This document shows positions 8,929 through 36,108 of a DNA stretch of 36,284 nt, piece after piece (within the stretch, counting starts at the first letter, position 1; every line of letters starts with the position of its first letter). Under the pieces are notes generated by a model. It was not told where the DNA came from and did not search any database. It was given only the letters and a program-made list of their open reading frames with translations. The stretch spans positions 1-36,284 of the IMG/VR virus record IMGVR_UViG_3300024249_000019. One strand, 5' to 3'. The position numbers were made by a program, and so were the translations under genes. The stretch is from a virus. Its lineage: Duplodnaviria; Caudoviricetes.

Positions 8929-8971
8929 TAGTCTCGCGGTGGGCGTGATGTGGCCGCGCCACCCCTTTCTG

Positions 8972-9514
8972 TCAGTCCAAATTAGCAAACTCGCCGAACA
9001 GCCTGATGGCAGCTTCACGATAGGCTTTGGAGGCTTCCTCAGCAGTGGCGAAAGTGCCGAGGTGGACGCCTTTGTCTCCAAACGAAATACGGGCAGTAAA
9101 TCCATTTCTTTGGTGGGCGGGCCGAACGCCTCGGTAGCCAATTCTAGGAGTCTTTCTATAGCGGGTATTGATCATGTTCTGGCTTTGGGTAGCGGCGCGC
9201 AGATTAGTAATGCTGTTGTCCCAGGAATCGCCGTTTGCATGGTCAATGCCGTTTGGCACTGGATCGCCGTAATGGATCAGCCAAGCAAGGCGATGTGCCA
9301 GGAACTTCGTCCGTCCGATAGCGATGTATAGATAGCCGTGTTTCTTGAAGCCGCCAGCAGACTTGCCTCCATAGCGTCCGTTCCATGCAGCGCACGCATG
9401 ATCAGTGCCGAACATCTCACGAGGGCGAGGCTTCCAGATGAAGCCGCCGGTTGCTGCGTCGTAGTGCAGCAATTCGCGTAACAGAGTCCGTGATGGTAGT
9501 GGTTTGACAGCCAT
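8972..9514 (-). CDS. HNH homing endonuclease with AP2 domain
   Basis: AHRLAW...IDHANGDSWDNSITNLRAATQSQN plus GYRGV...HLGTFATAEEASKAYREAAIRLFGEFA; GGAGGA SD. Confidence 0.9.
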   Translation of the reverse strand: MAVKPLPSRTLLRELLHYDAATGGFIWKPRPREMFGTDHACAAWNGRYGGKSAGGFKKHGYLYIAIGRTKFLAHRLAWLIHYGDPVPNGIDHANGDSWDNSITNLRAATQSQNMINTRYRKTPRIGYRGVRPAHQRNGFTARISFGDKGVHLGTFATAEEASKAYREAAIRLFGEFANLD

Positions 9515-9582
9515 GTCGATCCTCCGAACAGGGTCACTTGGTTAGGACGCCTCGAACCGCTTCAACGGCCGGGGCGTCCGCT
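9509..9582 (+). ncRNA. SymR-like cis-antisense RNA element 1
   Basis: CAT; GATCCT-6-AGGGTC hairpin; TTGGTTA linker; GGACGCCTCG/CGGGGCGTCC hairpin; GCT. Confidence 0.6.
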
Positions 9583-9608
9583 CTCAATACCACAATACGC
9601 ATCTTCGA

Positions 9609-9754
9609 TGCCGGAGGCTACGTCTAGGCAGGACGCAAACACCGATCGAACGGGGACGCAATATCCGGCAGGAGCCGCCCCGGCCACTCGTCGGTTCATC
9701 AGGATGGACCCCAATTCCAGTAGACGAGCGGGGGTGACAGCCGGAGAGACGGCA
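9609..9754 (+). ncRNA. candidate structured RNA (partly c-di-GMP-I/GEMM-like)
   Basis: Nested stems TGCCGGA/TCCGGCA, CCCCG/CGGGG, CTCGTC/GACGAG, GGTTCAT/ATGGACC, GCCG/CGGC; GCAAAC..GGACGCAA and GACAGCCGG motifs. Confidence 0.35.
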
Positions 9755-9777
9755 CAACAACCAACCCCAGGGGCTTC

Positions 9778-9975
9778 GTGACCGACGAGGAGACCAAGAC
9801 CGTCCTGGGGCTGGGGGGGCGGCTTATCACCGCCCTTCCGGCGCAGTTCCTGACGCTCGTTGTCATCAACGTGCTGGCGCTTGGCTTCCTGTTCTGGTTC
9901 GTGGATGCGCGGGCGAACCACACGGCCTCGGTGCTCAATCAGCTGCTGCAGGCGTGTCTACAGCGGTCGCAATAG
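9778..9975 (+). CDS. small membrane protein (possible holin-like)
   Basis: Hydrophobic FLTLVVINVLALGFLFWFV; function is a guess. Confidence 0.5.
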   Translation: MTDEETKTVLGLGGRLITALPAQFLTLVVINVLALGFLFWFVDARANHTASVLNQLLQACLQRSQ

Positions 9976-9978
9976 GCC

Positions 9979-10016
9979 AAAAGAAAAGGCCCCGCACTCA
10001 CACAGGAGAGCGGGGC
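9979..10016 (-). terminator. intrinsic terminator on minus strand
   Basis: Minus: GCCCCGC-T-CTC loop GAG-T-GCGGGGC followed by CTTTTCTTTT. Confidence 0.6.
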
Positions 10017-10086
10017 GCCGGAAGGTTCCTTGGTTCGTTATCGCATCCCCACCATAGCGCGCGGAGTGCGGCCATGCCAGCCAGCA

Positions 10087-10358
10087 TGAAACACGTCATC
10101 AGCGTGCCCTGGACCGACGAGGAGCGCACCCTGCTGCGCCAACTCCGCGCCAACGGCCTCGGCCCAGTGCTGATCGGCAGAATGATGGGGCGGTCCAAGT
10201 ACTCCGTGAACAAGCAGATCCAGGCCATGAGGCTGGCAGCACGGCCCCCGGCGCCAGATATGACGCCGCAGCCACGTCAGAGACCAGCCCAGCCCTTGCG
10301 GCCTGGCGCGCGCACCCTGCCGCCATTGCCGAGCGAGATGCATGACGATCGCGCTTGA
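10087..10358 (+). CDS. GcrA/Myb-like HTH protein
   Basis: WTDEERTLLRQLRANGLGPVLIGRMMGRSKYSV; exact start uncertain. Confidence 0.55.
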
Positions 10359-10653
10359 TTTTTACGCTCCGGGTTTTTTGGACCTTGAGGAGCGAGGAGA
10401 TCTCGTGGGGGAGACGCGTTACCGCACCACCGCGCTGGTGCGCGACGACGATCAGAAATTAGCGCTCAGAGTGGCCATTGACGATGACGGGGAGAGCGAG
10501 GGGGTAACGATCCAGCTAAGCCGCTACCACGCGGAGGATAAAGCAACCGGCAAAGCCTATCATGTTCGCATGGAAGCCTACCTCGAATGGAGCGATGTTG
10601 GGCGTATCCATGCGTTCCTGGGGCACCTCCTGGCGGTCTATCAGCAGCCATGA
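10342..10653 (+). CDS. hypothetical protein
   Basis: Globular-looking 103-aa ORF whose stop overlaps the terminase ATG. Confidence 0.55.
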   Translation: MTIALDFYAPGFLDLEERGDLVGETRYRTTALVRDDDQKLALRVAIDDDGESEGVTIQLSRYHAEDKATGKAYHVRMEAYLEWSDVGRIHAFLGHLLAVYQQP

Positions 10654-12119
10654 GCGACACCGCGACCGACTATGCAGAAACTATGCCCCCATCGTGGGCC
10701 GAGGCGATTGCGCGGGCGCCCAATCCCTATGAGGTGTCATTAGCCAGATATGCCCGTGCACCGATTGCGTTTGTCAGGGAAGTTTTATTAGCGGAACCCG
10801 ACGAGTGGCAGCTGAAGGTGCTGCGCGCCCTGGCCAGAGGGCATACACGCATCGCGGTGCGATCGTGCCATGGGCCGGGCAAGACCGCGCTGGCGGCCTG
10901 GGTGGCGGTGTGGTTCAGCAATACGCGGGCCCCGTTCAAGCTGGCGATGACGGCACCGAGCGCCCCGCAGCTGTTCGATGCGCTGTATCCGGAGCTGATC
11001 AAATGGCTCGACCGGCTGCCTGGTGCGTGGCGCGAGCTGTGGCATGTGACGTCCGATCATATCACGCTGAAATCCAACCCCGAGTGCTTTATCACCGCGA
11101 GGACATCGCGGCAGGAAACGCCCGAGGCGCTGGCGGGCTTGCACAGCGACAACATCCTGCTGGTGGTGGACGAGGCGAGCGGCGTGCCCGAGCAGGTGTT
11201 CGAGGCGGCATCAGGCTCGATGAGCAGCGCAGGGGCAATAACGCTGCTCATCGGCAACCCGACACGATCATCGGGGTTCTTCTGGAAGACGTTTAATTTG
11301 GAGCGGGACCGCTGGTTCTGCATGAAGGTCGGCCACCTCGACAGCCCACGGGTCACCGCCGACTACGCCGAGGAGGTTGCCGGACGCTACGGCATCGACA
11401 GCAACGCGTATCGCGTGCGCGTGCTGGGTGAGTTCCCGCTGGCCGATGCGGACACCATGATTGCAGCCGAACTGATCGACAGCGCGATGCTCCGCGACGT
11501 GGCGCTCGACAGCACCGAGCCCGAGATCTGGGGCGTTGATGTCGCGAGATTTGGGACGGATGCCAGCGTGCTGATCAAGCGCCGCGGCAACGTTGTTCCT
11601 GAGATGCCCAGAAGCTTCCACCAGGTCGACACTATGATGCTGGCAGGGGCCATAAAAGCGGAATGGGACGCGGCGAGCGCCAGCCGGCCGACGTTGATCT
11701 GTATCGACGTCATAGGGATTGGTGCGGGGGTGGTGGACCGGCTGAATGAGCAGGGGTTGCCGATCCTGGGCGTGAATGTGTCGGAGTCACCGAGTACCAC
11801 CGGGCGGTATGCCAAGCTGCGCGACGAGCTGTGGGAGCGCTGCGGCCAGTGGCTGGCCACGCGCGCGGTGCGGCTGCCCCGCCACGACCGGCTGCGCGAT
11901 GACCTGGCGGCACCACGCTATACGCATCTGAGCGACGGCCGGCTGAAGGTCGAGGATAAGAACTCCATGCGGGCTCGAGGATTGCCATCATGTGATTACG
12001 CCGATGCGCTCAACCTGACGTTCTGCCAGCAGGGGCTGGGGGTGGGCTCGGGCATGAGCGGCGGGATTTATGACCAGCGGGGGATGCGGATGGATCTGGG
12101 CGCGGAGGTGGAGGTATGA
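10650..12119 (+). CDS. terL: terminase large subunit
   Basis: Walker A SCHGPGKT, Walker B LLVVDEA, coupling motif IGNPT, RNase H-like WGVDVARFGTD and DYADA. Confidence 0.93.
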   Translation: MSDTATDYAETMPPSWAEAIARAPNPYEVSLARYARAPIAFVREVLLAEPDEWQLKVLRALARGHTRIAVRSCHGPGKTALAAWVAVWFSNTRAPFKLAMTAPSAPQLFDALYPELIKWLDRLPGAWRELWHVTSDHITLKSNPECFITARTSRQETPEALAGLHSDNILLVVDEASGVPEQVFEAASGSMSSAGAITLLIGNPTRSSGFFWKTFNLERDRWFCMKVGHLDSPRVTADYAEEVAGRYGIDSNAYRVRVLGEFPLADADTMIAAELIDSAMLRDVALDSTEPEIWGVDVARFGTDASVLIKRRGNVVPEMPRSFHQVDTMMLAGAIKAEWDAASASRPTLICIDVIGIGAGVVDRLNEQGLPILGVNVSESPSTTGRYAKLRDELWERCGQWLATRAVRLPRHDRLRDDLAAPRYTHLSDGRLKVEDKNSMRARGLPSCDYADALNLTFCQQGLGVGSGMSGGIYDQRGMRMDLGAEVEV

Positions 12120-12610
12120 GCGGCACCCAGGGACTGCTTGGCCCTACGGTTGCGTCCGGCATCACCCCCGACAGCGACCAGGGCCAGTTGGCCAGCGCCA
12201 TCAGCAGCTTCTTCGGCGGCGGCGCACCGCAGTTCCAGACGCAGACGCCCCAGGCCCCGGCCCCGGCGCCCATGCCCACGTATGACCGGTGGGGCCGGCC
12301 GCAGGGGGCCGGCGCCCTGCCCTCGCTCAATGTCGGGCCAGGGCTGGCGCAGGCACCCACGGGAGCAGTGACCCCTGGCCCGTCGGGCTACGACATGTGG
12401 GGACGGCAGGCGCCACCAGCACCGCAGGCACAGGCTGCACCCCAGCTTCCCGGCCTCGCCGACATCCTGGCGATGATCCAGGCCGAGCAGATGCGCCAGG
12501 CGCTGGCCAACGCCAACGCACCCCAGGGGCTGCTGGGCGGCCCAACTGGAAACGAGGGCGGGGCCGGCGGCTCAGCCGACCACGGCGGCGCCGATAGCGG
12601 GGTGATATGA
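12116..12610 (+). CDS. Pro/Gln/Ala-rich hypothetical protein
   Basis: GGAGG SD, ATGA overlaps both sides; duplicated YDxWGR. Confidence 0.6.
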   Translation: MSGTQGLLGPTVASGITPDSDQGQLASAISSFFGGGAPQFQTQTPQAPAPAPMPTYDRWGRPQGAGALPSLNVGPGLAQAPTGAVTPGPSGYDMWGRQAPPAPQAQAAPQLPGLADILAMIQAEQMRQALANANAPQGLLGGPTGNEGGAGGSADHGGADSGVI

Positions 12611-12789
12611 GCGGACTGACGCCGGATCAGCAGCGCGCGCTGTCCGCGTGTCAGGCGATCTGCATCATCCTCGCGGAGGATGTGTTCGCGCGGATCGATG
12701 GCGTCGGTGACGTGACCCAGGACGAGTGGATGGAAGATAAACGAGCAGAACTGAGCTTCTGGCTGAAGCAATTGAAAGAGCCGGTATGA
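12607..12789 (+). CDS. hypothetical protein (60 aa)
   Basis: ATGA overlap; flanked by 12-bp direct repeat TATGAGCGGACT. Confidence 0.5.
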   Translation: MSGLTPDQQRALSACQAICIILAEDVFARIDGVGDVTQDEWMEDKRAELSFWLKQLKEPV

Positions 12790-12794
12790 GCGGA

Positions 12795-13334
12795 CTAATT
12801 ACGAGCAAATGCACCGTGCAGGCGCTTCGCGGCCTTTCTGCGCGCTGCGGCAGCCTCCTCCATAGTATCAAATGTGCCGATATGATGAGGACGACGGTTT
12901 TTCATCACACGAGCCACAAATCTACCGGTGAGCTTAATCCGGAATACGCCTTTTACCCCCGTTGTGCTATTGCGATGCCCCCGTTGGTTGGCGAGGTTCC
13001 CAGGGTAGTCAGCCAGTCGAAGGTTTGCGATCCGGTTATTCCATTCGTGACCATCAATGTGGTCGATTATGAGCGGAACTGGTTCGCCGTAGGCCAGCAG
13101 CCATGCGAGCCTGTGGGCCATGAACCTGGAGCGATTTATGTAGATGGCAAGGTAGCCATCAGTTCTCGCGGAACCCGCAAAAGTGCCAGCATATCTCGTA
13201 TTCCACCTGGCACACTCTCGCGCGCTGCTGAAGTGGTGCGCTGGCCTGATGCGCCATTGGAATATTCCGCGATCAGGACTGTAATCGAGGCACTCGCAGA
13301 CATACTCGCGATCTGGCAGCGTCTTAGTAGCCAT
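12795..13334 (-). CDS. HNH homing endonuclease with AP2 domain (paralogue of 8972-9514)
   Basis: AHRLAW...IDHIDGHEWNNRIANLRLA...GVKGV...HIGTFDTMEEAAAAR; GGAGGA SD places start at MATKTLP. Confidence 0.9.
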   Translation of the reverse strand: MATKTLPDREYVCECLDYSPDRGIFQWRIRPAHHFSSARECARWNTRYAGTFAGSARTDGYLAIYINRSRFMAHRLAWLLAYGEPVPLIIDHIDGHEWNNRIANLRLADYPGNLANQRGHRNSTTGVKGVFRIKLTGRFVARVMKNRRPHHIGTFDTMEEAAAARRKAAKRLHGAFARN

Positions 13335-13400
13335 CTGATCCTCCTTCCAGGGTCGTTGGTCAGGAGAGCGGTGGCGTGGCAAGCGTCGCCGTTCTCCGCT
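13329..13400 (+). ncRNA. SymR-like cis-antisense RNA element 2
   Basis: CAT; GATCCT-6-AGGGTC; TTGGTCA; 14-bp hairpin with three G-U pairs on + strand; GCT. Confidence 0.6.
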
Positions 13401-13411
13401 GGAGCAATATC

Positions 13412-16141
13412 ATGAGCGGGCTTGTGGCGCGACCTCAATCGTTGCCTTTCGGTGGCCTGCTTGGTGCGGCGCCGCAAGGCGGGATTATGTCCCCAATGAT
13501 GGGCGGCGTCCCCCCGCTTCCACCACTCCCGAACTTAGTGCCGTCCGGCATGCAGCCTCAGGGGCTAAACGTGGGAAGCGAGCAAATGCTCGCATACTTA
13601 GTGCCACAGCCCCGGGCGGACATTCCACCAGATGGCGATCTTGATCTACCGCCATCGCTGCGGCGTTATGCGGCTGGGTTACGTCCTACAGTAAAACCGG
13701 CTGGTGTAAAATGGCAACAGGAGATTTTATTCGAGCGACTGGGGAAGGACGATCGCGAGATTGAGGCGGTGGCGCAGTATTACTTCAAGATTGCGCAGAA
13801 CTACGACATGTATCTGAGCAAGGAGCGCATCACCGCATCGCAGTATTATGACGGGCGGCCACTGGGCGATGAAACACCCGGGCGCTCACAGATCGTGTTG
13901 ACGGTTGTCCGCGATACCATCCGCAGCACGCTACCAAGCCTGCTGCGCGTGTTCACCGGGGTCGAGGATCCAGTCAGCTTTGAACCGATTTCATCTGAGA
14001 TCACCGGCAACGACCAGCTGGCGACGATGCTGGCGCGCCAGGCGACCGACTATGCCCGCTGGGCGCTGTTTACCGCCAACCACGGCTGGCAGGTGCTGCA
14101 CGACGTATTGTTGGACGCTCTGACCCGCAAGGCTGGGTGGGCGCGCTGGTATTGGGGCAAGCGCGAACAAGTGCGGACGGATGTCTGCGAGGGCCTGTTG
14201 CAGCCACAGCTGCAAATGCTGCTGGTCCAGCCAGGCATCGAGGCGCAGCGCATCGTGCGCCGGCCGATGACCGACGAAGAGCAGAGCGTTATGCTGAAGA
14301 CCCCCGACGGGGCGATGTACCTGAGCCAGGGCGGCGCCCCCGAGATGTGGGCCGCGACCATCACCCGCACCGCGCAGCAGAACTGGCCGTGCGTCGAGGC
14401 GGTGCCGGCCGAGTGCGTCTGGGTGGTGGCCGACGCGAATGATGTCGGGACGGCGCGCGGCATCTTTCACGTCAGGGACGTCCCGGCATCCGACCTGATC
14501 GAGATGGGGCTGCCGGCAGACAAGATCCTGGCCTACTGCGATACCATGCCGCGGCCGCAGCAGCGCCGCGAGATGATCGCGCGCAACCCGGCGCAGGGGC
14601 TCAACATCAAGGCCTCGCCCCCGAATGACCGCAGCATGGGCATCTGTCGCTACGCCGAGGGCTGGATCCGCTGCGATACCGACAATGATCACAAGGCGGA
14701 ACTCATTCACGTCCATATGCTGGGCAATGCCACGAAGCTGATCCAGTGGGAGCGCTGCGACGAGATCCCGCTGGCATGCTTCACGCCGTATCGCGAGCCG
14801 GGGCGCCTGATCGGCTATTCGCAGGCCGACATGGTGATGGACCTGCAGCGGGTTGAGAGCCGGGTGATGCGGGCGACGCTGGACAGCCTGGCGCAGTCTA
14901 TGTTCCCCAGGACGGTCGTTACGTTGGGGCAAGTGAACCTCGCGGATGCCAGACAAACCGCCATCGGGTCGATCATCCGGACGACGCAGCCGGGGGCGGT
15001 GACCGAGCTGGTGAAGCCCTATACCGGCGAGGCCGCGATCGCCATGCTGCAGGTGCTCGAGGCGGTGCGGGAGAGCCGCACCGGCATCACGCGGGCGTCG
15101 CAGGGCCTCACCGTGGACGAGCTGCAGTCGACCGCGCCCGTGGCCGTCTCGGCGCAGACCGGCGCCGCGCAGGACCGCCTTGATATGGTGGCGCGGACAT
15201 TGGCCGAGACCGGGCTGGCGCCGCTGTATGCCGGGCTGCTGAAGATGATGGCGCGGCATCAGGACCGGCCGAACGTCTATCGCATTCGGGGCCAGTGGGC
15301 GGCGATCGATCCGCGCGCGCTCGGCGTGATGTGGCAGACCTCCGTGAATGTCGGCGGCAAGGGCATGCCGATGGAGCGGCTCGCGATGCTGGCGCAGATC
15401 GCCGCCAAGCAGGAGATGATCATGGGCTCGCAAGGGCTCGATAACCCGCTGGTCGGCGTGCCGGAATATCGGAATACGCTCTCGCGTATGTTGGAAACCG
15501 CGAATATTGCCGATGTGTCGTCATATTTTAAGGCGTTGCCCCCCGGGTTCGTCCCGCCACCACAACCACAGCAGCCGAACCCCGATCTGCTGCTTGCGCA
15601 AGTACAGGCCGGCAAGACGGCGGCGGATGTCGAGAACGACCGGGCGTCGGAACAAACCAAGCGGGCGCAGATGTTGACCGAGGATGACCTGAACCGGGAC
15701 AAGGCGGCATTGGACGCGTGGACGAAAACGTGGGTCGCCGGCGCCCAGTTCGGCACCCCGGTGCCGAGCCTGACGGAATTCCAGCAGGCCATGGCGAGCA
15801 AGGGGCCGGGCATCCAGCTGCTCGGCGATCTGCCGCCCCCCACCAGCCCGCAGATGCCCGCCACCGCCGGGCCACCGCCAGGCCAGCAGCCGCCCCAGAA
15901 GCCGCCAGGGGCGCCACAGGGGCCAATGGCACCCACCATGCAGCCACCACGCCCGGCGCAGCCCATGGGGCCACCAGCGGGCAGCTTCAACCCGGCCCAG
16001 GCCATGGCCACGCGCCAGGCACTGATGTCGGGGCAGATGCCCACGGCGTATGGTGCCATCGCGGCCAATGCGGCGGGCAAGTCGCTGTTTGGGCCTGGGG
16101 GCCCACCGCTTCCAAGGCCACCACAACCATCAGGGCAATAG
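13412..16141 (+). CDS. portal protein with Pro/Gln-rich extensions
   Basis: Large ORF between TerL and scaffold; GGAG SD; P22-like portal character (YYDG..GRSQIV..VRDTI...ESRTGITRASQG..TA). Confidence 0.85.
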   Translation: MSGLVARPQSLPFGGLLGAAPQGGIMSPMMGGVPPLPPLPNLVPSGMQPQGLNVGSEQMLAYLVPQPRADIPPDGDLDLPPSLRRYAAGLRPTVKPAGVKWQQEILFERLGKDDREIEAVAQYYFKIAQNYDMYLSKERITASQYYDGRPLGDETPGRSQIVLTVVRDTIRSTLPSLLRVFTGVEDPVSFEPISSEITGNDQLATMLARQATDYARWALFTANHGWQVLHDVLLDALTRKAGWARWYWGKREQVRTDVCEGLLQPQLQMLLVQPGIEAQRIVRRPMTDEEQSVMLKTPDGAMYLSQGGAPEMWAATITRTAQQNWPCVEAVPAECVWVVADANDVGTARGIFHVRDVPASDLIEMGLPADKILAYCDTMPRPQQRREMIARNPAQGLNIKASPPNDRSMGICRYAEGWIRCDTDNDHKAELIHVHMLGNATKLIQWERCDEIPLACFTPYREPGRLIGYSQADMVMDLQRVESRVMRATLDSLAQSMFPRTVVTLGQVNLADARQTAIGSIIRTTQPGAVTELVKPYTGEAAIAMLQVLEAVRESRTGITRASQGLTVDELQSTAPVAVSAQTGAAQDRLDMVARTLAETGLAPLYAGLLKMMARHQDRPNVYRIRGQWAAIDPRALGVMWQTSVNVGGKGMPMERLAMLAQIAAKQEMIMGSQGLDNPLVGVPEYRNTLSRMLETANIADVSSYFKALPPGFVPPPQPQQPNPDLLLAQVQAGKTAADVENDRASEQTKRAQMLTEDDLNRDKAALDAWTKTWVAGAQFGTPVPSLTEFQQAMASKGPGIQLLGDLPPPTSPQMPATAGPPPGQQPPQKPPGAPQGPMAPTMQPPRPAQPMGPPAGSFNPAQAMATRQALMSGQMPTAYGAIAANAAGKSLFGPGGPPLPRPPQPSGQ

Positions 16142-16150
16142 GAGGACACC

Positions 16151-16321
16151 ATGGTCACACGAGCCAGCGGGAGCCAGTCGACGAAAACCGTGCCCCGTCA
16201 GGGCCAGAACAAGCCCGTCGCCGGTGGGCCGGCTGGGGCGGGTAAGGCGCGCGGTGCCGCGTCGCTGCCGTCCATCAGCCGCACCACGGCGCCCCCGAGC
16301 AAGCAGCCCGCCAAGCGGTGA
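16151..16321 (+). CDS. small basic protein (56 aa)
   Basis: GGAGG SD; stop overlaps next GTG. Confidence 0.5.
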   Translation: MVTRASGSQSTKTVPRQGQNKPVAGGPAGAGKARGAASLPSISRTTAPPSKQPAKR

Positions 16322-16590
16322 GCGACCTCTCACGCGAGGAGCGGCACGAGATCCAGCGCCGCGGCAGTGAGGCCCACCGCCTGCTGCAGGACCGCGAGCT
16401 GATGGACATGCTCTCCTTTATCCGCGAGGGCGCGGTCACCACCGCGGTGCATGGCACCGATGCCCGCGAGCGCGAGGACGCCCGCAACCTCGCGCGCGCC
16501 ATCGATCACCTCGCCACCGAGATGCGCACCCGGCTCGATACCGCGCTGCTGCAGAACCAGCGCGAGACCGATGCCCGGCGGTTTGAGTGA
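16318..16590 (+). CDS. small helical protein between portal and scaffold
   Basis: Position typical of podophage head modules. Confidence 0.6.
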   Translation: MSDLSREERHEIQRRGSEAHRLLQDRELMDMLSFIREGAVTTAVHGTDAREREDARNLARAIDHLATEMRTRLDTALLQNQRETDARRFE

Positions 16591-16599
16591 GGATGCACC

Positions 16600-17736
16600 A
16601 TGAGTGAGAGTAGCAGCGCCGCGCCAGCCGCGCCGGCAGCCCCCGCAGCAGCCCAGCCGGCCACCCCGGCACCGGCCTCCAACGACGCCGCCCTGGCCAA
16701 CGCCCCAGCCCCCGCGTCACAGGAGGCCATCAGCCTCTCCGATGCCGGCCGTATGCTGGCCGCCAAGCGGCGCCAGGACGCGGCAACCGCACGCCTCAAT
16801 CCCGTGCAGCAGGGGCCGGGAGAGGCACGCCTCACTACGGCGCCCGCACAGCCCGCAGCGCCGGCGTCAGCACAACCCAAGCCCGCCGAGGCGACCGACA
16901 GCTACGACACCATCGCCAAGGCGCTGGGGCTCGAGCAGGGCGTGGCCCCGACGGCCGATGAGGGCGCACCAGCTGGTGAGACGCCCACCGATGGCGTCTA
17001 TACGATCGATGGCCACCGCGTCACCGCCGCCCAGATCAGGACTGCGATGGGGCAGGCGGCCGACTATACGAGGAAGACCCAGGAGCTCGCCCAGCAACGC
17101 CAGCAGCTGCAGCAGCAGGCCGAGGCGCTGGCCACCGTGCTGCCGCATATCCAGCCGGAATTGCAAAAACTCGGGCAGCAACTGCAGGGCGCCACCCCAC
17201 CCGATCCAGGAATGATCGAAACCGATCCCCAGGGGTATCTGCGGCAATTCGCGGCGTATCAGCAGGCCACTGCCGAACAACAGAGGTTGGGCACCCTCAC
17301 TCAGTTGCAGCAGCAGGCCTACGAGCGCTCGATGATGCAGCAGGTGGAAGCCGGCAATAAGGTGCTCAGCGAGAAGTACGAATTCTGGCGCGATGATGCA
17401 CAGCGGGCCGCGGTGCAACGCGATATCGCGGCATGGGCAACCGCCAAGGGCGGATACTCACGGCAGGAGCTGCAGGGGCTGTCCGATCCGCGCCACGTCG
17501 AAAGCATGATGAAAGCGATGATGTGGGACAAGATGGTGGAAGGCGCCAAGACCCGCGCGCCCGCCCCGGTGCAGACCGCACGCGTCCGCGGCACCCCGCC
17601 CCCACCACCCGCCGCCGCCGCCGTGCAGGCGCTCGAGCAGGCGTTCGAGGCCGCACCCAATGCGCGCAATGCCGCCGCGTTGTTGAGCGCACGACGCTCG
17701 GCCGCCGCCGGCAGCAACGGCAGCGGGCGGTATTGA
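16600..17736 (+). CDS. capsid scaffolding protein
   Basis: GAGG SD; YTIDG..VT...ADYTRKTQELA motif, coiled coil, directly upstream of capsid gene. Confidence 0.8.
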   Translation: MSESSSAAPAAPAAPAAAQPATPAPASNDAALANAPAPASQEAISLSDAGRMLAAKRRQDAATARLNPVQQGPGEARLTTAPAQPAAPASAQPKPAEATDSYDTIAKALGLEQGVAPTADEGAPAGETPTDGVYTIDGHRVTAAQIRTAMGQAADYTRKTQELAQQRQQLQQQAEALATVLPHIQPELQKLGQQLQGATPPDPGMIETDPQGYLRQFAAYQQATAEQQRLGTLTQLQQQAYERSMMQQVEAGNKVLSEKYEFWRDDAQRAAVQRDIAAWATAKGGYSRQELQGLSDPRHVESMMKAMMWDKMVEGAKTRAPAPVQTARVRGTPPPPPAAAAVQALEQAFEAAPNARNAAALLSARRSAAAGSNGSGRY

Positions 17737-17762
17737 CGGCACTGTATCCACGCTCGTAGCGT
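17733..17762 (+). promoter_or_regulatory. sigma70-like promoter for capsid gene
   Basis: TTGACG-18 nt-TAGCGT overlapping scaffold stop. Confidence 0.55.
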
Positions 17763-17770
17763 CCCGCCGT

Positions 17771-17880
17771 CGGTCGGGGGCAGTGGTGCATGCGCCACCA
17801 AGCAACGACCGGGCCGTGCAGTCGCAGGACGACCAAGTAGGCCATCGGCACGCAGCGCAGTCGGGACACCGACCAAGCGT
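17771..17880 (+). repeat. three tandem structured repeats in capsid 5' leader
   Basis: GCA-GT(G/C)G-loop-C(C/G)AC-CAAG at 17780-17802, 17818-17837, 17857-17877, each closed by an outer stem. Confidence 0.7.
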
Positions 17881-17980
17881 CTAAACGCCCGATCCGCCTT
17901 CAGTCAGATCCATTGCGAACCAGCAATTTTGGTTCAACCGGCACGAGGCGCCCAGCGCCCGGCCTGCAATGGAGATGGAT

Positions 17981-18860
17981 ATGGCCGTTCCCACAATGGG
18001 AGCCGCTCCCAGTAACACTTACATAGAGACAGCTGCCGTCGGCGTCCGTGAGGATCTTGCCGACATCATCTATCGCATCGATCCTGACGAGACGCCGCTA
18101 GTATCAGCCTGCCCGCGTGTCGGTTCCAAGCAGGTGCTCACCGAATGGATCGTGCAGGAACTCAACCCGGCCGCCGATAACGCCCAGCCCGAGGGCTTTA
18201 CCGCCGTCATGCAGGCAGTATTGAAGCCGATCCGCATCAATAATGTCTGCCAGATATTGGCGCGCACAGTCGGTGTGTCTAATACGCTGCGTGTTGTCGA
18301 TGTCGTCGGCGGTGAAGACGAATACAACCGCAACATGATCCTGCGCGCCATGGAGGTTAAGCGCGACCTCGAGCTCGCTGTCACGTCGCCGCTGGTGCGC
18401 ACCATCACCGATCCACGCCATATGTCGGGACTGCCCTGCTACACCGCATTCGGCGCGCGCGGCGCTGGTGCGGGCGTCATGCCGATCGGCGACGGCTCCA
18501 ACGCAGGCACCCCCGGCACGGCCTACGATCTCACCCTCGCCGTGGTGAATGCCGCCATCCAGCAGTGCTGGCAGGCCGGTGGCAATCCGACGCTCGGCAT
18601 CATGTCGGGCAACATCAAGAACTACTTCGCCACGCTCAGCCAAGGCGGCACGGGCAACCCGATCGTGGCGCAGAACATCGTCCAGGCGTCACCCACCGGC
18701 GAGATGACCATCCAAGGCGCAGTCGACGTCTACCGCACCAACTTCGGCACGCTGCAACTCACGCCGGATCGCTTCGGTCCCGCTCACCAAATTCTGCTTG
18801 TATCTACAGACTATGTGGAGATGGCACCACTGCCGGAAAGGGACATGGTGCAACAAGACT
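17981..18860 (+). CDS. major capsid protein, exon 1
   Basis: GGAG SD; VGVREDLADIIYRIDPDETP...NNVCQI...EVKRDLE resembles DUF5309/SU10-type capsid proteins; protein-like sequence stops at QQD. Confidence 0.88.
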
Positions 18861-19164
18861 CGCGCCGCATTGCGGCGAACGACAACGCCATTCGTTCGCT
18901 AGTAGCGGCATAGGTCCTTCAGCAAGTGATTGCTGTCGAAAACTGGGTGAAATCGGTGAAGGCGCAAACAGGAAAGCTGTGCGTAATACCGAGCCAAGCC
19001 CCGCAAGGGGAAGGTGTAACGACTAGGGGGCAACCCCGTAGCTTCAAGCGAAGCGAAGCGCCCAGCCCTTCCTCGGAAGGTGATGAGATAGTCTGCTCTG
19101 CATGGAGACATGCAGCAGCCCGCAAGGGCGGTTGGAGATCAGCGACCTCCAGCGAACAATCAGG
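18861..19164 (+). ncRNA. group I self-splicing intron (304 nt, no ORF)
   Basis: Exon-end GACU pairs with GGUC 18913-18916 (U-G at splice site); P10 GCAU 18908-18911 pairs with exon 2 AUGC; P AAUCGGUGAA, Q AAUACCGAG, R GUAACGACUAG, S GAGAUAGUC; P3 CUGGGU/GCCCAG; P7 GACUA/UAGUC; P9 with GAGA loop; terminal G. Confidence 0.92.
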
Positions 19165-19268
19165 ATGCGCAAACCGGCGACAACAGCCAGGGGGGGGTCA
19201 TTTTCGAAGGTTGTATCCGGCCCACCGCCCCCAAGGCTCACGCGACCATCTTCGACCTAAATCAGTAG
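19165..19268 (+). CDS. major capsid protein, exon 2
   Basis: Splice restores D-Y-AQTGDNSQGGVIFEGCIRPTAPKAHATIFDLNQ*, giving a 327-aa protein with the expected 'A.TGD...E...KAH..I.DL' C-terminus. Confidence 0.88.
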
Positions 19269-19858
19269 CCTTCACGAAAACGCTCAAGGTAAGCGGCCCC
19301 AGCCCGAAGCAGGGCGGGGTCGTCCTTGGCGTTCCCAAGCATCAGGTTGCAGCCACGACAGATCCAGCCACGGAACACGCCTGTGGCATGGCAATGGTCG
19401 TAATGCATTCCCCTCTTCGGGTCGGGTGGCCCGGCGCAGATTTCGCAGACCTCTGGGCGGGGCCTTTTGGCCAACGTCTCAAGGTCTATGGCGCGCTGTT
19501 CGATCTTGCGCTGATGCCGATGCCGATATTTGGCATTCAGCTCACCGTTGTCGTCCCTGATGTATTGACGGTGCGCCTCCCGAAGCTTCTCACGGTTCTT
19601 TTCGCGATAGCGGCGCTTGTTTTCGCGGACGGCCTCTGCGTTCTTCTTAACGTATTCGCGCTGGTAGGCATTCCTGGCTTCGCGCTGCTCCGGTGTCTCC
19701 TCGCTATAGCGCTTTCTTGCCGTCTTGCGCCTCTCTGGGAGGTTAGCGGCATAACTTTCCCGCTCATAGGCGCGTCTAGCCTCGGCGTTGTTCCTGCGCC
19801 AGGTGTTGGCATAGGCGGTCTTGATTGCCTTGCGCGTCTCGTCGTCGTTGGATGGCAT
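19262..19858 (-). CDS. free-standing endonuclease VII-family nuclease
   Basis: CEIC...HYDHCHATGVFRGWICRGCNLMLG; basic helical N-terminal repeats. Confidence 0.88.
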   Translation of the reverse strand: MPSNDDETRKAIKTAYANTWRRNNAEARRAYERESYAANLPERRKTARKRYSEETPEQREARNAYQREYVKKNAEAVRENKRRYREKNREKLREAHRQYIRDDNGELNAKYRHRHQRKIEQRAIDLETLAKRPRPEVCEICAGPPDPKRGMHYDHCHATGVFRGWICRGCNLMLGNAKDDPALLRAGAAYLERFREGY

Positions 19859-19933
19859 AGCTTCGATCCTTGGTCCGAACAGGGTTCGTGGTTAGGGACG
19901 TTGCTGGCCGTGGAGGGCCGGCAACGCCCCGCT
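19853..19933 (+). ncRNA. SymR-like cis-antisense RNA element 3
   Basis: CAT; GATCCT-10-AGGGTT; GTGGTTA; 15-bp hairpin; GCT. Confidence 0.6.
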
Positions 19934-19950
19934 TATAGCGGATTACCGCT

Positions 19951-20274: not shown

Positions 20275-20285
20275 AGGAGCACACC

Positions 20286-21768: not shown

Positions 21769-21806
21769 GTGCTGGACTACGACTTATAGTCTGTTACTAT
21801 CCATAG

Positions 21807-25259: not shown

Positions 25260-25272
25260 GGCACCCAGCATC

Positions 25273-25620: not shown

Positions 25621-25628
25621 GAGACGAC

Positions 25629-25952: not shown

Positions 25953-26197
25953 TGAGCGACGCACAGGCGCCGATGGTCACGCCCGAGCAACCGCTCAGTG
26001 TCGTGCTGAGCATCCAGCAGTGGCGCGCCGTGCTTGAGCAACTGGCCGCCCCACTGCGCCCCGTGCAGGCGATGATCGCTGACATCGAACGGCAGTGTCA
26101 GACGCAGATCGCACGCCTGCAACAGCCGCCCTTGGCTATGAACATGCCACCGCGCGGTAACGGCGCGGAGGAACGGTCAGATGCCAGCCATAGCTAA
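25949..26197 (+). CDS. hypothetical helical protein (possible fibre chaperone)
   Basis: VLEQLAAPLRPVQAMIADIERQ; position among fibre genes. Confidence 0.55.
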   Translation: MMSDAQAPMVTPEQPLSVVLSIQQWRAVLEQLAAPLRPVQAMIADIERQCQTQIARLQQPPLAMNMPPRGNGAEERSDASHS

Positions 26198-26791
26198 CTG
26201 CGGCGAAGTGTTCTCTTGGTTGCGCTCGATATACACGATGAGCTTGCGCAGCCTGTCCGGACTGTCCTTCACGCATCCCAACGCAATGTTGCATCGGTCG
26301 CAAATCCAGCCGCGTGGATGGCCTTTGGTATGACAATGATCGAAGACAATGCCGCCGTCGTTGCCGCCGCACGCATCGCAAGCGTCCGGTCGCTTCCTGC
26401 CCAACAGGATCTCGTTCCTGGCGAGCAGCTTGGCGGGGCGTCTGGCGTTATTGCGCTTCCAAGCCGCTCGGTATTGCTCAGGCTTCTCCACCTGGACCAG
26501 CTTGCTGCGTCCACGTTGCTGCGCGTTAAGCTTGGCCCGATTAGCCGACTTATATGCCTTGCGATCAGCGACCACCTTTTCTCGGTTCTTTATGCGCCAT
26601 TCTCGCTGCTTTTCTCGAATGCGCGCCTTATTGGCGGCCTGATATTCGCGCTGATATGCTGCTATCTCTTCCTTGTTGGAGTTACGCTTAAGGCGTTCCT
26701 GCTCGCGGATCTTGTCTATGTTCTTCTGTCGCCACGCGCGGAAATACGCCCTCTGAGCGGCTCGCTTTTCTTCGGTCATGCTATGCTTCAT
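26177..26791 (-). CDS. endonuclease VII-family nuclease (paralogue of 19262-19858)
   Basis: CDAC...VFDHCHTKGHPRGWICDRCNIALG; N-terminal basic repeats; start MKHSM after SD. Confidence 0.88.
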   Translation of the reverse strand: MKHSMTEEKRAAQRAYFRAWRQKNIDKIREQERLKRNSNKEEIAAYQREYQAANKARIREKQREWRIKNREKVVADRKAYKSANRAKLNAQQRGRSKLVQVEKPEQYRAAWKRNNARRPAKLLARNEILLGRKRPDACDACGGNDGGIVFDHCHTKGHPRGWICDRCNIALGCVKDSPDRLRKLIVYIERNQENTSPQLAMAGI

Positions 26792-26865
26792 CAGCCTCGA
26801 TCCTTCTCGCGGGGGGTCGGGGTTAGGGGCGGTGGCAGTGTTGGACGCACTGTCGCCGCTCTGTT
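26786..26865 (+). ncRNA. SymR-like cis-antisense RNA element 4
   Basis: CAT; GATCCT..GGGGTC; GGGGTTA; 15-bp hairpin with four G-U pairs, apex GTG-TTGGACG-CAC. Confidence 0.6.
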
Positions 26866-26885
26866 GATACCATGGAGTGCATCGC

Positions 26886-31197: not shown

Positions 31198-31209
31198 GGG
31201 GAATAGGCG

Positions 31210-31620: not shown

Positions 31621-31629
31621 GGGGGCGAC

Positions 31630-33849
31630 ATGGCAGACACCGCGGACGACACCCAGACACTGCCGGATTACTCTGCCGCGTCGCCTGAGGTGAAGGCGGC
31701 GCTGCTGGGCCAGGCAGGCGGTGGCGGGAGCGGCGTCGACCTCAACGCCATCGCGCAGCAGCTGTTGCAACAACCGACCCTGCCGCAGCCCGACACCACA
31801 CCGGTCAAGCGCGGCTTCCTGTCGCTGCTCGGCGAGGCGCTGGCCGGCGGGCCGCTTACCGACGTGATGAGCCCGGCACAACGGGAGCGTGCTGGACTGC
31901 GCGCGCTGGGCGATTTCGGCACCTCGCTGATGGCGGGCAGCGGCTACTACCCGGGCAAGCCGATGTTCGGTGGGCTGGCAGAGGGGTTCCAGGGCGCGGC
32001 GCGTGGGGAGGCCGGCTCTGAGCAGGCCGCGGCGGCTTATCTCGCGGCGCAGCAGCAATACGCTGCGGGGCAGCAGCAGCAGTATCTTGAGCGGCTCAAG
32101 GTGGCGGTGCCGTTGCTGCGTGCCGGCGCCGCCGGTGCCGTGCCCAATCTGCTGCTCGGTGGTGGCGCCGTGCCAGGAACCAGCGGGGGCGCTGGTGGCG
32201 GCGGATATGAGGGCTCAATCGCCGGCATCGAGGGCACCGGCAAGAACAAGAACTCCTCGGCGTCCGGCGTCGGCCAGTTCCTCGACAGCACCTGGTCCGA
32301 CTTCGCCGCGGCTAACCCGGATCTGTTCAAGGGCATGACGCCGGCGCAGGTGATGGCCGCAAAGTCAGATCCAAGCCTTGGCGCCAAGGCCATCTCGTGG
32401 CTGGCACAGCGCAACGCGGGCGTGTTGAGCGGTGCGGGCGCAACGCCTACCGGCCAGTCACTCGGCATCGCGCACTATATCGGGCCGACGGCGGCGGCCA
32501 AGGTGATGGCAGCGCCGGACAATGCGCCTGTGAGCAGCTTCGTCAGCCCCGATGCGGTGCAGGCCAACAAGGAGATTGCCGCGGGGTTGACCGCCGGGCA
32601 GCTGAAGCAGCGCTACGCCAACGTGCCCGATCCCGACTTCCTGGCGCCCCCTAAGCCGGTGAAGGTGGCCGGTCCTGGGGCGCCCACAGGCGGCGCTACG
32701 GCGCCCGATGTGCCGTGGGATGTCCCGGCAGGGGGTGAGGCGGCAACCCCGCCAGCGGACGCCACAGCCCCGGCAACGGCAACGCCTGCCCCGCCCGCGC
32801 CCCTTTCGTTCGCGGACTTCCAGAAGCAGAACCCGATCCCCACCACGCCGGAGGAGCAGGCAACGCTCGATGCTCTGCAGCGGGTAAAACAGCAGACCGC
32901 GGTCGAGTTGCAGAATGCACCAACGACCGGCGTTGATAGGGTCAAGACGGTGCAGGCTGCCCGCGAGGCTGCCGATAATTTAGCTACAGCGACGCGCCAG
33001 ATACAGGACGCTCACACCGCCCATCAGGTGGCGCTGTACAACGCCGAGATGACGCGCCGGCAAGGGGACGAAAGAGCCGCGGCCGATCGGGCGGCGCAGA
33101 TCGCGCTGAAGGAGCAGGAGGGCAAGCAGGCAATCACGTTGGCCAACGTCCAGGGAGATGTGCAGCGCGCCACCAACAAGGAACAGGTGATCAATACCGC
33201 CAACCTGGAAGGCCTGAAAACGGCCCAGAAAGAGCAAGGCGAAGCCCGTGATGTGGTCTCCCAGCTGCAAGGTTTCCGCGCAATCTCCGATGGCGTCGGC
33301 CAGCCTAATTGGCTGCAGACCACCAAACTGCCAGGCAGCGAGAAAACAATCGCCGAGACACTAGGCCAACTCGGTATGCCGCTAAGCGATACCGGCGGCG
33401 TGCAACTGCTGCGCGGCGGCATCAACAACCTCGTGAAGACGCTGCGCCAGGGTATGGCTATGGGCTCGTTATCAGATCGCGATCTAAACTTCATTGAGCG
33501 TATGGGGCCAACCGAATGGATGGACCAGGACACCCGCACCGCAGCAGTCGCCTATCTCCAGCAGGCCTACCAAGCCAAGCAGCGGTTCACCTCCGATGTG
33601 CAGAAAGAGATGGCCAGGGGCAAGAACTACGGCGACGCGATCGATGCCGCCGACGCAAAGCAAAAGCCGTTTGTGCCAGCCGTGCCAGCCGATTTAAGCG
33701 CGCACTGGACCGACAATAGCCCAGAGTGGAGGGATCGACGCATCCAGTGGGCACAGCAGAACGAGGTCCACCCCGGCACGCTTTACCACCTTAGCAATGG
33801 CAGCATAATGGTAATGAAGTCGCCGCGCGCTCAGCAGGGGCAACAGTAA
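31630..33849 (+). CDS. ejection protein with lytic transglycosylase-like domain
   Basis: IAGIEG...SSASGVGQFLDSTW...AHYIGP. Confidence 0.75.
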   Translation: MADTADDTQTLPDYSAASPEVKAALLGQAGGGGSGVDLNAIAQQLLQQPTLPQPDTTPVKRGFLSLLGEALAGGPLTDVMSPAQRERAGLRALGDFGTSLMAGSGYYPGKPMFGGLAEGFQGAARGEAGSEQAAAAYLAAQQQYAAGQQQQYLERLKVAVPLLRAGAAGAVPNLLLGGGAVPGTSGGAGGGGYEGSIAGIEGTGKNKNSSASGVGQFLDSTWSDFAAANPDLFKGMTPAQVMAAKSDPSLGAKAISWLAQRNAGVLSGAGATPTGQSLGIAHYIGPTAAAKVMAAPDNAPVSSFVSPDAVQANKEIAAGLTAGQLKQRYANVPDPDFLAPPKPVKVAGPGAPTGGATAPDVPWDVPAGGEAATPPADATAPATATPAPPAPLSFADFQKQNPIPTTPEEQATLDALQRVKQQTAVELQNAPTTGVDRVKTVQAAREAADNLATATRQIQDAHTAHQVALYNAEMTRRQGDERAAADRAAQIALKEQEGKQAITLANVQGDVQRATNKEQVINTANLEGLKTAQKEQGEARDVVSQLQGFRAISDGVGQPNWLQTTKLPGSEKTIAETLGQLGMPLSDTGGVQLLRGGINNLVKTLRQGMAMGSLSDRDLNFIERMGPTEWMDQDTRTAAVAYLQQAYQAKQRFTSDVQKEMARGKNYGDAIDAADAKQKPFVPAVPADLSAHWTDNSPEWRDRRIQWAQQNEVHPGTLYHLSNGSIMVMKSPRAQQGQQ

Positions 33850-35381
33850 TGGGTGACAGCCTCGATCCCGCAGCCAGCTCGGTGATGGTGGCGCCAGGCG
33901 GCCCGAGCGGCTCGACCGACAACACCTCAACGACAGGCGTCGATCCTGGCGGCTCGTCCTACCCGGACATGACACCCACCCCAGGCAAACGATCGATCCT
34001 CGACACCAGCTTCAACACCGTGCCGTCCGATACCAGGCCTGGCGGATCGCTATGGGATGCTAATGTCCGCGTCGGAACGGAGATGAAGCAGACCTACCGG
34101 GACACGCAGCCGATCGTCGGGCCGGCAGCGCGCCAATGGATCGGCAACCAGGGATGGCTTGGCCGTAATGTCCTGGGACCAGCAGCGGATGTCGCCGATG
34201 TTCTAGGGAAAGGCGCATCGGCAGCCGGGGCCGGCGTTCTCGCCAACCTCTCGGAGATCGGTAGCGGCGGCAATCCCAAGCTGGCCAGGGACGTGCATGC
34301 CGCGCTGCAGATCCTGCCCGTGGTGCAGACCAGCATGCCACCTGTGGCTGGCCCGATTGTGCCGAAGGCACCAAGCTTCACGGGCGATATGCCGCCGCTG
34401 GCCCGGCCGCCTGGCGCACCGGCTGGCCCTACCAGCCCGAGTTACCAACCCGAAGCCGTGCCGATCAAGACGCCGGCTGATGCGCTTAAAGTCGCCAGCG
34501 GCCTGTATAAAACTGCCGACGCGTCAGACTTCCAGCTTCACCCACAGTTCACCCATGACTGGCTCGATAGCCTCGACCAGTATCAGAAGCAGACCCCCGC
34601 GGGGCAGGCCGCGGCAGGCCCCAATGCCACAACCAGTCTCATCGCTGATTTGCGCAAAACAGCCGACGCGCCGCTGGACAGCATTCAGAGCATCCAAGAG
34701 GTCGACAAGACGATTCAGGACGCAATTTCAAACCAATACCGCGACGGCACTCTGTCTCCCGAGGGCAGGCAGATGCGGCAGATCCTGCAGGACTTCCGCC
34801 AACGCTACTCGAACGTCCCGCCAGAGCATATGTCGGGCAGCCCACAGGGCATTCAGGCATTCAACGATGCGCGCAGCGCCTATGCGGCCTATTCGCGCAT
34901 GAACGATCTACAGGGCGTCGTGGACTCCACTGAGGGCAACCCCAATCGTGCGACGTTAATCGCATCACGCACCAATGCATTTCTGAATGATCCAGACAAT
35001 GTGCGTGGCTGGACCCCCGACGAAATCGCCACCGCCCGCAAGGCTGCCAACTCGGGCTTCCTGCAGGAGTGGATGCGCGCAGAAGGTAGTCGGTTGGTCG
35101 GTATTGGGACGGCTGTCACGGGGGGTGGTTTGACAGGCGCGCTGGCGGCGGTGCCAGCCCAGGTCGGGCTGTCCTACGCCGTGCGCAACGCTGCGGAGAA
35201 TATGCGACTGGCTCGATTGCAGAACGCTATCGGCGTCCTGGGACAACGCGTGCCGCAGCCTGGCACGGTGCCGCCGAGACCACCGCCGTTCATGCCGCCG
35301 CAATCCGTGGTATCAGCTGCTCGATATGCGCCGCTCGTAGGGCTGCTGGGGCAGCCAAACGGTCAACAATCCAATCAATGA
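33849..35381 (+). CDS. ejection/DNA transfer protein
   Basis: Large helical ORF closing the structural module. Confidence 0.65.
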   Translation: MGDSLDPAASSVMVAPGGPSGSTDNTSTTGVDPGGSSYPDMTPTPGKRSILDTSFNTVPSDTRPGGSLWDANVRVGTEMKQTYRDTQPIVGPAARQWIGNQGWLGRNVLGPAADVADVLGKGASAAGAGVLANLSEIGSGGNPKLARDVHAALQILPVVQTSMPPVAGPIVPKAPSFTGDMPPLARPPGAPAGPTSPSYQPEAVPIKTPADALKVASGLYKTADASDFQLHPQFTHDWLDSLDQYQKQTPAGQAAAGPNATTSLIADLRKTADAPLDSIQSIQEVDKTIQDAISNQYRDGTLSPEGRQMRQILQDFRQRYSNVPPEHMSGSPQGIQAFNDARSAYAAYSRMNDLQGVVDSTEGNPNRATLIASRTNAFLNDPDNVRGWTPDEIATARKAANSGFLQEWMRAEGSRLVGIGTAVTGGGLTGALAAVPAQVGLSYAVRNAAENMRLARLQNAIGVLGQRVPQPGTVPPRPPPFMPPQSVVSAARYAPLVGLLGQPNGQQSNQ

Positions 35382-35479
35382 GCGTTGCGGCGACCTCGCC
35401 AGGCTTCCCAATGATCGATCGCACGTATGACCAACCAAGCTAGCGGGATGCCGAGAAAGAAGCCCAATATCCAGATCAT
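35375..35479 (-). CDS. small membrane peptide (34 aa)
   Basis: MIWILGFFLGIPLAWLVIRAIDHW..., directly downstream of the minus-strand HNH gene. Confidence 0.35.
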   Translation of the reverse strand: MIWILGFFLGIPLAWLVIRAIDHWEAWRGRRNAH

Positions 35480-35492
35480 CACAGTTTCCCAG

Positions 35493-35993
35493 TCAGGTGC
35501 AGGATGAGGCGGCGCTATCAACGCCGCCCCTCCAGGTCAGTAGTCGCCATTTTCTCCCACGGCGGGCTGCGCTAATCGTAGTTTCAGCAACACCTAGCTC
35601 AGCAGCGAAAGAACGGCCTGTGCGCCACGTCTGTTCTCTGATCGCCAGCACATCAGCAGCTGTCAACTTCGAGTTAAAGCGGAGTGAGCCTTTACTTTCT
35701 CTCCCATGTCGCACCGTGTCCTGCCAGTTCTCGCGTGGCGTCGCCCATCGTAAATGCTTAGGTGCAACGCACGCTCGGTTTCCGCACCAATGCGCTACAT
35801 GTGGCTTATCCAGCGGTGGCATTCCATGAGCCAAAGTGCATACAACACGAGCTGCAGTGCCAGCAATGCCGGGGTATCTGACGCCGCCGTACCCCTCAGA
35901 GGTAAGGTTGTATGGCCAGAGCAAGCAATCGTTGCCGGCATAACCGACAGCCTCGGCGATAAATGCCGGAAGCGCTCCGCGGGGAGCTCGCAT
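35493..35993 (-). CDS. HNH endonuclease with C-terminal HTH
   Basis: CLLWP...GYG...AHWCGNRACVAPKHLRWATPREN...SKLTAADV; GAGGA SD places start at MRAPRG. Confidence 0.85.
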   Translation of the reverse strand: MRAPRGALPAFIAEAVGYAGNDCLLWPYNLTSEGYGGVRYPGIAGTAARVVCTLAHGMPPLDKPHVAHWCGNRACVAPKHLRWATPRENWQDTVRHGRESKGSLRFNSKLTAADVLAIREQTWRTGRSFAAELGVAETTISAARRGRKWRLLTWRGGVDSAASSCT

Positions 35994-36095
35994 CGGGTGG
36001 TCCTCATATACGCCCGTTGAGAGACGCTGCGCCGGGTGGGCAAGTCGGCGCGGCGTTAGGGGCGTCGTTGTGGTCACACACAGCGGCGCCCCGCT
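35988..36095 (+). ncRNA. SymR-like element 5 (variant with extra hairpin)
   Basis: CAT; CGGGTG/CGCCCG hairpin with TCCTC in loop; extra hairpin; GTTA; 14-bp GGGGCGTCGTTGTG/CACAGCGGCGCCCC hairpin; GCT. Confidence 0.5.
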
Positions 36096-36108
36096 TCGTA
36101 GGCGGGGT

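Follow-up and report, generated by a model that had tools for sequence, protein, structure and literature searches.

Predicted RepX- and SymR-like antisense RNAs at the starts of five reverse-facing HNH/EndoVII nuclease genes in a phage genome

The closest described counterparts of the elements reported here are RepX of the IncQ plasmids (Rfam RF00043) and SymR of Escherichia coli (RF01809). According to the available part of one account (PMC8136791), RepX is an exceptionally stable 75-nucleotide (nt) RNA of two stem-loops, which lies over repA's ribosome-binding site, has a GUUA spacer and lacks a U tail; only 24 RepX-like sequences (5 of them unique) had been found, and repA is the sole target named there. 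The same source gives FinP of the F-like plasmids a GACA spacer and a U tail. SymR, in the accessible portion of its description (PMC1891008), is a 77-nt RNA with its promoter in symE, where silent changes to the -10 box abolish SymR and raise SymE; it acts in trans, independently of RNase III and Hfq, and is very stable. Homing nucleases of phage T4, by contrast, are held by hairpins in their own mRNA (PMC2988022, available part). Here we describe five elements in a 36,284-base virus record (IMG/VR IMGVR_UViG_3300024249_000019, Caudoviricetes), the whole of which is referred to below as the window; one stands at the start of each of its five minus-strand HNH/EndoVII genes. Each element probably encodes a RepX/SymR-like cis-antisense RNA of about 73 nt, transcribed from a predicted promoter of its own, which would repress translation of the adjacent and probably homing nuclease. 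Their positions, with their coverage of the Shine-Dalgarno sequence (SD) and ATG of the adjacent gene, are as follows.

9509 to 9582, plus strand: predicted antisense RNA 1, 74 nt, covering both SD and ATG
13329 to 13400, plus strand: predicted antisense RNA 2, 72 nt, covering both SD and ATG; weak match to Rfam Plasmid_R1162 (24.6 bits)
19859 to 19933, plus strand: predicted antisense RNA 3, 75 nt, covering the SD but not the ATG; weak match to Rfam symR (31.3 bits)
26793 to 26865, plus strand: predicted antisense RNA 4, 73 nt, covering the SD but not the ATG
36022 to 36095, plus strand: predicted antisense RNA 5, 74 nt, with a variant 5' end and pairing only upstream of the SD

The layout that the initial annotation had described for all five genes, in three domain architectures (HNH_3 with AP2, EndoVII, and HNH_3), was found to read as claimed, together with the five TA-starting hexamers on the minus strand and the GTG-TTGGACG-CAC apex; the elements also fold better on the plus strand, with z-scores of -3.7 to -7.3 against -0.3 to -3.6 on the minus strand. 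A phmmer scan of all open reading frames (ORFs) in the window returned eight nuclease-like genes, five on the minus and three on the plus strand, and no further minus-strand nuclease; the element is present at all five of the former, and a window scan found it missing at all three of the latter (221-1021, 6335-6772 and 21807-22271). Two details of the layout had to be redrawn. The conserved 5' boundary is A(G)C rather than CAT, which shifts the cores of copies 3, 4 and 5 to 19859, 26793 and 36022, and the GGTY taken earlier for a linker is the predicted 3' strand of the hairpin 1 base, with GCGTTA in its place in copy 5. The family is one of elements of 70-80 nt with two stem-loops and a fold on the antisense strand. 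A closing helix of 5' AGC with 3' GCU was tried and rejected: it is about 5 kcal/mol worse, its pairing probability is near zero, and the 3' ends of held-out members vary (GCT, GCC, GTC and GGT).

Pairing is kept while stem sequences differ, as had been proposed: covariation was observed in three model-fitted alignments, at 22 of 27, 21 of 26 and 18 of 26 pairs, although in the third the pair count alone was matched or beaten in 103 of 500 shuffles, the other four measures beating the shuffles. The second of these alignments consists of matches of another model, R2, outside its training; in it the 21 of the 26 pairs vary on both sides, and sliding the partners destroys the signal. MAFFT plus RNAalifold, which use no such model, recovered hairpin 2 and not hairpin 1. 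At its base (AGCC with GGUY) hairpin 1 is nearly invariant even though this part lay outside the first search patterns; where this part does change, C-G becomes G-C in one lineage and G-U becomes A-C in another. The expected excess of G-U pairs on the plus strand was likewise borne out, with 11 G-U against 2 A-C when hairpin 2 is counted over all five copies and 60 against 16 across 52 distinct hairpins, which favours the antisense strand; that strand folds more stably than the sense strand in 57 of 57 members. The five copies score 35.8-53.9 bits under R2, whose training included them, the best other match, their own reverse complements aside, being 9.7 bits. Copy 5, which lay outside the training of R1, a covariance model of 29 rows with RepX and SymR left out, still scores 34.1 bits under it. 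One unpublished genome (G004) supplies 1 training row (L196) and 5 of the 34 held-out rows, and the conclusions hold on a metagenome set free of it. A loose descriptor scan was non-discriminating (10 matches, against a mean of 4.8 in 40 shuffles); the five copies were its five most stable hairpins.

R1 ranks RepX first in its 10-kb locus (RSF1010; 36.5 bits, E = 3e-8) and E. coli SymR first in its own (28.4 bits, E = 3e-6). The likeness to SymR put forward in the initial annotation therefore stands in layout, ends and covariance-model score, but RepX is the better match, and the Rfam gathering scores are not reached by any copy: 31.3 bits (copy 3) against 61 for RF01809, and 24.6 bits (copy 2) against 55 for RF00043. 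Because of these scores the elements are not members of either family, and their targets are HNH/EndoVII genes rather than symE or IncQ repA; to judge from the sequences, they nonetheless likely work like RepX and SymR. In the reciprocal direction the Rfam Plasmid_R1162 model gives locus L034 50.7 bits (gathering score 55), and symR gives L219, the best of 20 loci, 39.5 bits (gathering score 61). The RF00043 R1162 model reads in the mRNA sense, ending in SD and AUG, so that it scores the opposite strand and may hide relatives.

With RepX the family shares a length of about 75 nt, two stem-loops, an AGCC 5' base, a GGTTAG junction, a CCGCT end without a U-tract, an anti-SD in stem-loop 1 and an upstream box, which for RepX is TAGGCT, 13 nt upstream inside repA; the 75-nt match is derived from sequence rather than from mapped ends and may be 2 nt off. 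RepX differs in that its target is the RepA helicase, and in that it overlaps the end of an upstream gene and has no evident facing promoter. SymR, at 77 nt, has the same layout, a promoter within its target ORF and a similar hairpin 2 apex, and the conserved ends of the family coincide with those annotated for it; it differs in its target, the AbrB-fold protein SymE under LexA control, and in a base-pair change, C-G to U-A, at the foot of hairpin 1. FinP too has two stem-loops, is antisense to a start region and is the top R2 match in the pSLT tra region, but at only 17 bits. The T4 homing endonucleases (I-TevI-III, segB, mobE) resemble the present case in that RNA structure limits their translation, but there the fold lies in the mRNA and is opened by a late promoter, whereas here a stable fold lies on the opposite strand and has its own predicted promoter.

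The evidence for such promoters bears on a further claim, that a dedicated plus-strand promoter is weak or absent in most copies and that the late transcript possibly supplies the antisense RNA. A -10-like box, defined as A at position 2 plus T at position 1 or 6, lying 11-13 nt upstream of the conserved 5' A, is found in four of the five copies (1, 2, 4 and 5):

9497 to 9502, plus strand: predicted antisense -10 TAGTGG (TG-extended), copy 1, inside the coding start of nuclease 1
13317 to 13322, plus strand: predicted antisense -10 CAGCGT (TG-extended), copy 2
26782 to 26787, plus strand: predicted antisense -10 TATGCT (TG-extended), copy 4
36009 to 36014, plus strand: predicted antisense -10 TACGCC, copy 5, in the leader of nuclease 5

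The same box, at the spacing seen in SymR, occurs in 33 of 38 non-redundant members including RepX and SymR (15 of them with the full TAnnnT; shifted offsets gave 17% and 0.9%), in every one of the 22 held-out members, and in 24 of 25 metagenome matches that pass the model, against 7 of 53 pattern matches that fail it (p = 7e-13); it is TG-extended in 21 of 55. An SD upstream of the ATG likewise marks 22 of 25 model-passing and 7 of 55 model-failing metagenome matches, and neither -10 box nor SD played any part in the search pattern. A sigma-70 scan found none of the element promoters because it requires a -35 match. An own promoter embedded at the target start is thus, judged by sequence alone, a feature of the family and of four window copies, contrary to the earlier claim. 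Moreover, the element-bearing nucleases of L220 and L121 are co-oriented with both of their Pfam-identified neighbours, so that late read-through cannot supply antisense RNA there; a late source may hold for copy 3. Many alphaproteobacterial members begin M(A/V)D(S/T)xNxR (L297, L299, L304, L306, L309-L313 and L315), several of them being just 21-33 amino acids long, apparently because those codons spell the antisense promoter.

The mechanism proposed is one in which host sigma-70 polymerase would start at the conserved A, 11-13 nt past the -10 box, and the RNA would end three bases past hairpin 2, at about the start of the nuclease mRNA. For want of a regular U-tract, the 3' end is suggested to arise at an atypical terminator or through trimming by an exonuclease. 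The anti-SD in hairpin 1 would then pair with the mRNA leader and block ribosome loading, and would repress only its own gene: the predicted duplex with the own target is worth -169 to -183 kcal/mol, against -56 to -90 between copies, whose longest stretch in common is 12 nt. Since such RNAs are stable, nuclease production would fall mostly into the time directly after DNA entry, when the RNA has yet to build up; this might suffice for homing and limit later damage. Read-through from the late genes on the plus strand may contribute further antisense RNA, and for copy 3 it may be the chief source. The strands of evidence that favour this reading are sequence, covariation, strand bias, promoter-like boxes, SD overlap and the empty sites in related phages described below. 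SymR and RepX, for their part, act as repressors in this same arrangement and are very stable (PMC1891008, PMC8136791).

Several observations weigh against it. The core of copy 5 contains neither SD nor ATG; copy 3 has no -10 box at the family spacing, and its relatives at the capsid site mostly have weak ones. Many of the ORFs behind members are tiny (6-28 amino acids) or unknown, and the invariance of GGTYAGG and CCGCT is partly a matter of ascertainment, because both were in the search patterns and models. The related phage G010 has two reverse nucleases without the element, apparently leaderless, one of them a relative of nuclease 2. For all new members the antisense RNA is a prediction from their sequence; the window nucleases are probably free-standing homing endonucleases, with putative activity and homing; and a burst of expression on entry is suggested by analogy only. 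Searches of all four related phage records for tyrosine and serine integrases came up empty.

Four other explanations were considered. The antisense RNA might be cut from, or be identical to, the late plus-strand transcript, with no need of a dedicated promoter. All five window copies are indeed in antisense orientation inside the late operon, copy 3 comes after the capsid gene and has no -10 box, and the missing U-tract would suit a processed 3' end; but the boxes at fixed spacing, across the family and in four of the copies, and the co-oriented yet element-bearing nucleases of L220 and L121 make this unlikely. It is quite improbable that the working structure lies in the nuclease mRNA, with hairpin 1 hiding the SD and hairpin 2 capping the 5' end as in the T4 leaders that serve as precedent (PMC2988022, available part): the predicted SD accessibility of the sense-strand leader is only 0.15-0.48, as this would require, but the greater stability of the antisense strand in every member and the excess of G-U over A-C pairs point the other way, and an antisense promoter would serve nothing.

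We see only a small chance that the essential feature is a pair of convergent promoters 70-80 nt apart whose polymerases interfere, with the RNA as a by-product and with hairpin 2 as a terminator protecting the neighbours. Such an arrangement would account for the TA-hexamer that 26 of the 28 nuclease-linked viral members have just outside hairpin 2, on the sense side, and for copy 5, which retains the layout without covering the SD; it would not account for the conservation of hairpin 1 and of the SD overlap, the repression in trans by SymR (PMC1891008, available part) or the want of an evident facing promoter at RepX, and over all members the enrichment of the sense hexamer is modest (43 of 72, against 30%). 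Finally, the pair might be a type I toxin-antitoxin addiction module, in which a cell that has lost the element and its labile RNA would be killed by the nuclease. SymR counts among the antitoxins and nucleases can be toxic, but RepA, integrases, a methylase and Cas1 are among the targets, and the empty sites and insertion pattern fit homing. With SymR and RepX both reported to be very stable (available parts of PMC1891008 and PMC8136791), addiction appears very improbable indeed.

The element family reaches far beyond nucleases. Pattern scans for members referred to no gene, and the viral count, from which near-duplicates and matches below 33 bits were excluded, comprises 46 distinct elements. 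By phmmer, 28 of these precede HNH/EndoVII genes (one of them broken) and 1 a GIY-YIG gene; the rest stand before an integrase, a methylase and unknown ORFs. About 13 belong, by inspection, to one capsid-site lineage, so that about half of the independent sites are nucleases. Of the 119 metagenome matches returned, 25 among the first 80 pass the model; a single HNH is among 22 ORFs scanned, which gives 1 nuclease-linked element in 25. Of 120 additional genomes from the class of G001, with scoring limited to 40 candidates in each, 7 contain members, as do 6 of 11 genomes of one order; the 15 new matches from the class sample include, by inspection, no HNH/EndoVII gene, and one of 8 ORFs scanned is RuvC-like. 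The element also precedes a Cas1 gene (L270, 3-1511) and another integrase, and in a 2-kb Acinetobacter plasmid a member lies between a replication gene and a small ORF (L312, 384-460). The enrichment beside phage nucleases (29 of 46 viral elements) bears out one part of the initial annotation, but the cassette family of nucleases and antitoxin RNAs envisaged there is not supported, as most members outside phage contigs precede other genes, RepX is a better match than SymR and the known RNAs are reported to be stable. A blastn search of member L299 against named phages matched nothing, and a literature search, largely without subscription papers, found no paper on this element family. Variant elements with GGTAGG and a GAA end, at about 24 bits, stand before small coiled-coil or membrane ORFs in G006 and G007 (L287 and L288).

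It is tempting, if rather doubtful, to place SymR and RepX together in a single, large and undescribed superfamily of 'entry-timer' cassettes that are portable, and in which facing promoters and a stable antisense RNA would be combined with a swappable mobile-element gene (homing nuclease, integrase, methylase, Cas1 or replication protein). Such a gene would be expressed in a burst in a naive cell and then shut off, and a resident copy would silence an incoming one in trans, so that a homing nuclease would fire only where the allele is missing; thousands of RNA/leader pairs would be mutually orthogonal. If true, two narrow Rfam families would be joined into one widespread regulator of mobile DNA, and backward-facing free-standing homing nucleases would have a timing mechanism where known cases rely on mRNA hairpins. 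By rough extrapolation, from 25 of 80 sampled matches passing and about 31,000 stretches matching the pattern, some thousands of metagenome stretches hold members, which would be a source of orthogonal antisense switches.

The nuclease genes of the window, and their sites in related phages, are these.

8972 to 9514, minus strand: nuclease 1, HNH_3 with AP2, free-standing; site empty in the related phage G007
12795 to 13334, minus strand: nuclease 2, HNH_3 with AP2, inserted at the portal start; site empty in G006
19262 to 19858, minus strand: nuclease 3, EndoVII family, its 3' end adjoining the capsid stop; empty site in G010
26177 to 26791, minus strand: nuclease 4, EndoVII family; empty site in G006, another EndoVII at the site in G007
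35493 to 35993, minus strand: nuclease 5, HNH_3

Since four sites, those of copies 1-4, are empty in related phages, nuclease and element appear to move together. Genes 1-4 encode an HNH/EndoVII domain and are optional inserts whose sites are empty in relatives, as free-standing homing endonucleases are. At site 2 the portal start has been duplicated and recoded: a relic of the original lies at the 3' end of nuclease 2 (12786-12800) and the recoded duplicate follows the element (13412-13435). Relatives of nuclease 3 that share its N-terminus have the element in 11 of 11 loci; it is absent at distant EndoVII matches and at 5 loci of 34%-identical relatives of nuclease 1. In L057 and L072 an HNH-AP2 gene takes the place of EndoVII at the capsid site, with nearly the same hairpin 2, and an identical 121 nt of copy 5 recurs before a 41-amino-acid ORF in L069. 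A rule that a reverse nuclease needs the element is broken by the two G010 genes, and the element is therefore not required. Those HNH genes (21540-22088 and 31902-32390) have a -10-like box 7-8 nt before the ATG and likely give leaderless mRNAs, an alternative form of control. The end of an HUH transposon or repetitive extragenic palindromic (REP) sequence, suggested by the TTAG at the hairpin foot, was also considered for the element, and was rejected because no second end was seen by inspection on the 3' side of the nucleases and because the promoter and SD signals indicate RNA.

Facing each element, the hexamers of the nuclease strand are candidate promoter boxes:

9584 to 9589, minus strand: candidate nuclease 1 -10 TATTGA, consensus match only
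13404 to 13409, minus strand: candidate nuclease 2 -10 TATTGC, consensus match only, in the spacer of the portal ribosome-binding site
19932 to 19937, minus strand: candidate nuclease 3 -10 TATAAG, kept in relatives
26864 to 26869, minus strand: candidate nuclease 4 -10 TATCAA, consensus match only
36095 to 36100, minus strand: candidate nuclease 5 -10 TACGAA, consensus match only

Near nuclease 3 and outside the cassette lies one further feature, its junctions inferred by comparison with intron-less capsid genes:

18861 to 19164, plus strand: group I intron in the major capsid gene (RF00028, 66.7 bits at 18882-19115)

This intron has no ORF and stands just upstream of the EndoVII gene; in G006 and G007 the nuclease is present at this site and the intron absent, a pattern that resembles collaborative homing. 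T4 segD is likewise reversed beside a capsid gene (PMC2988022, available part). The virus record, 88% complete, has an early region with Cro-like, antirepressor and replication initiator genes and a podovirus-like late operon on the plus strand; relatives of its capsid protein, at 29-38% identity, include Rhizobium and Sinorhizobium phages. Searches of the four related phage records for resolvase and S24 were blank; HTH_3 repressors are present in G006 and G007. A Pro/Gly-rich repeat ORF without a PHROG match occupies 8200-8928 on the plus strand. To the right of copy 1, a non-coding stretch without an Rfam match (9644-9777) is 92% conserved in G007, above the level of the flanking genes.

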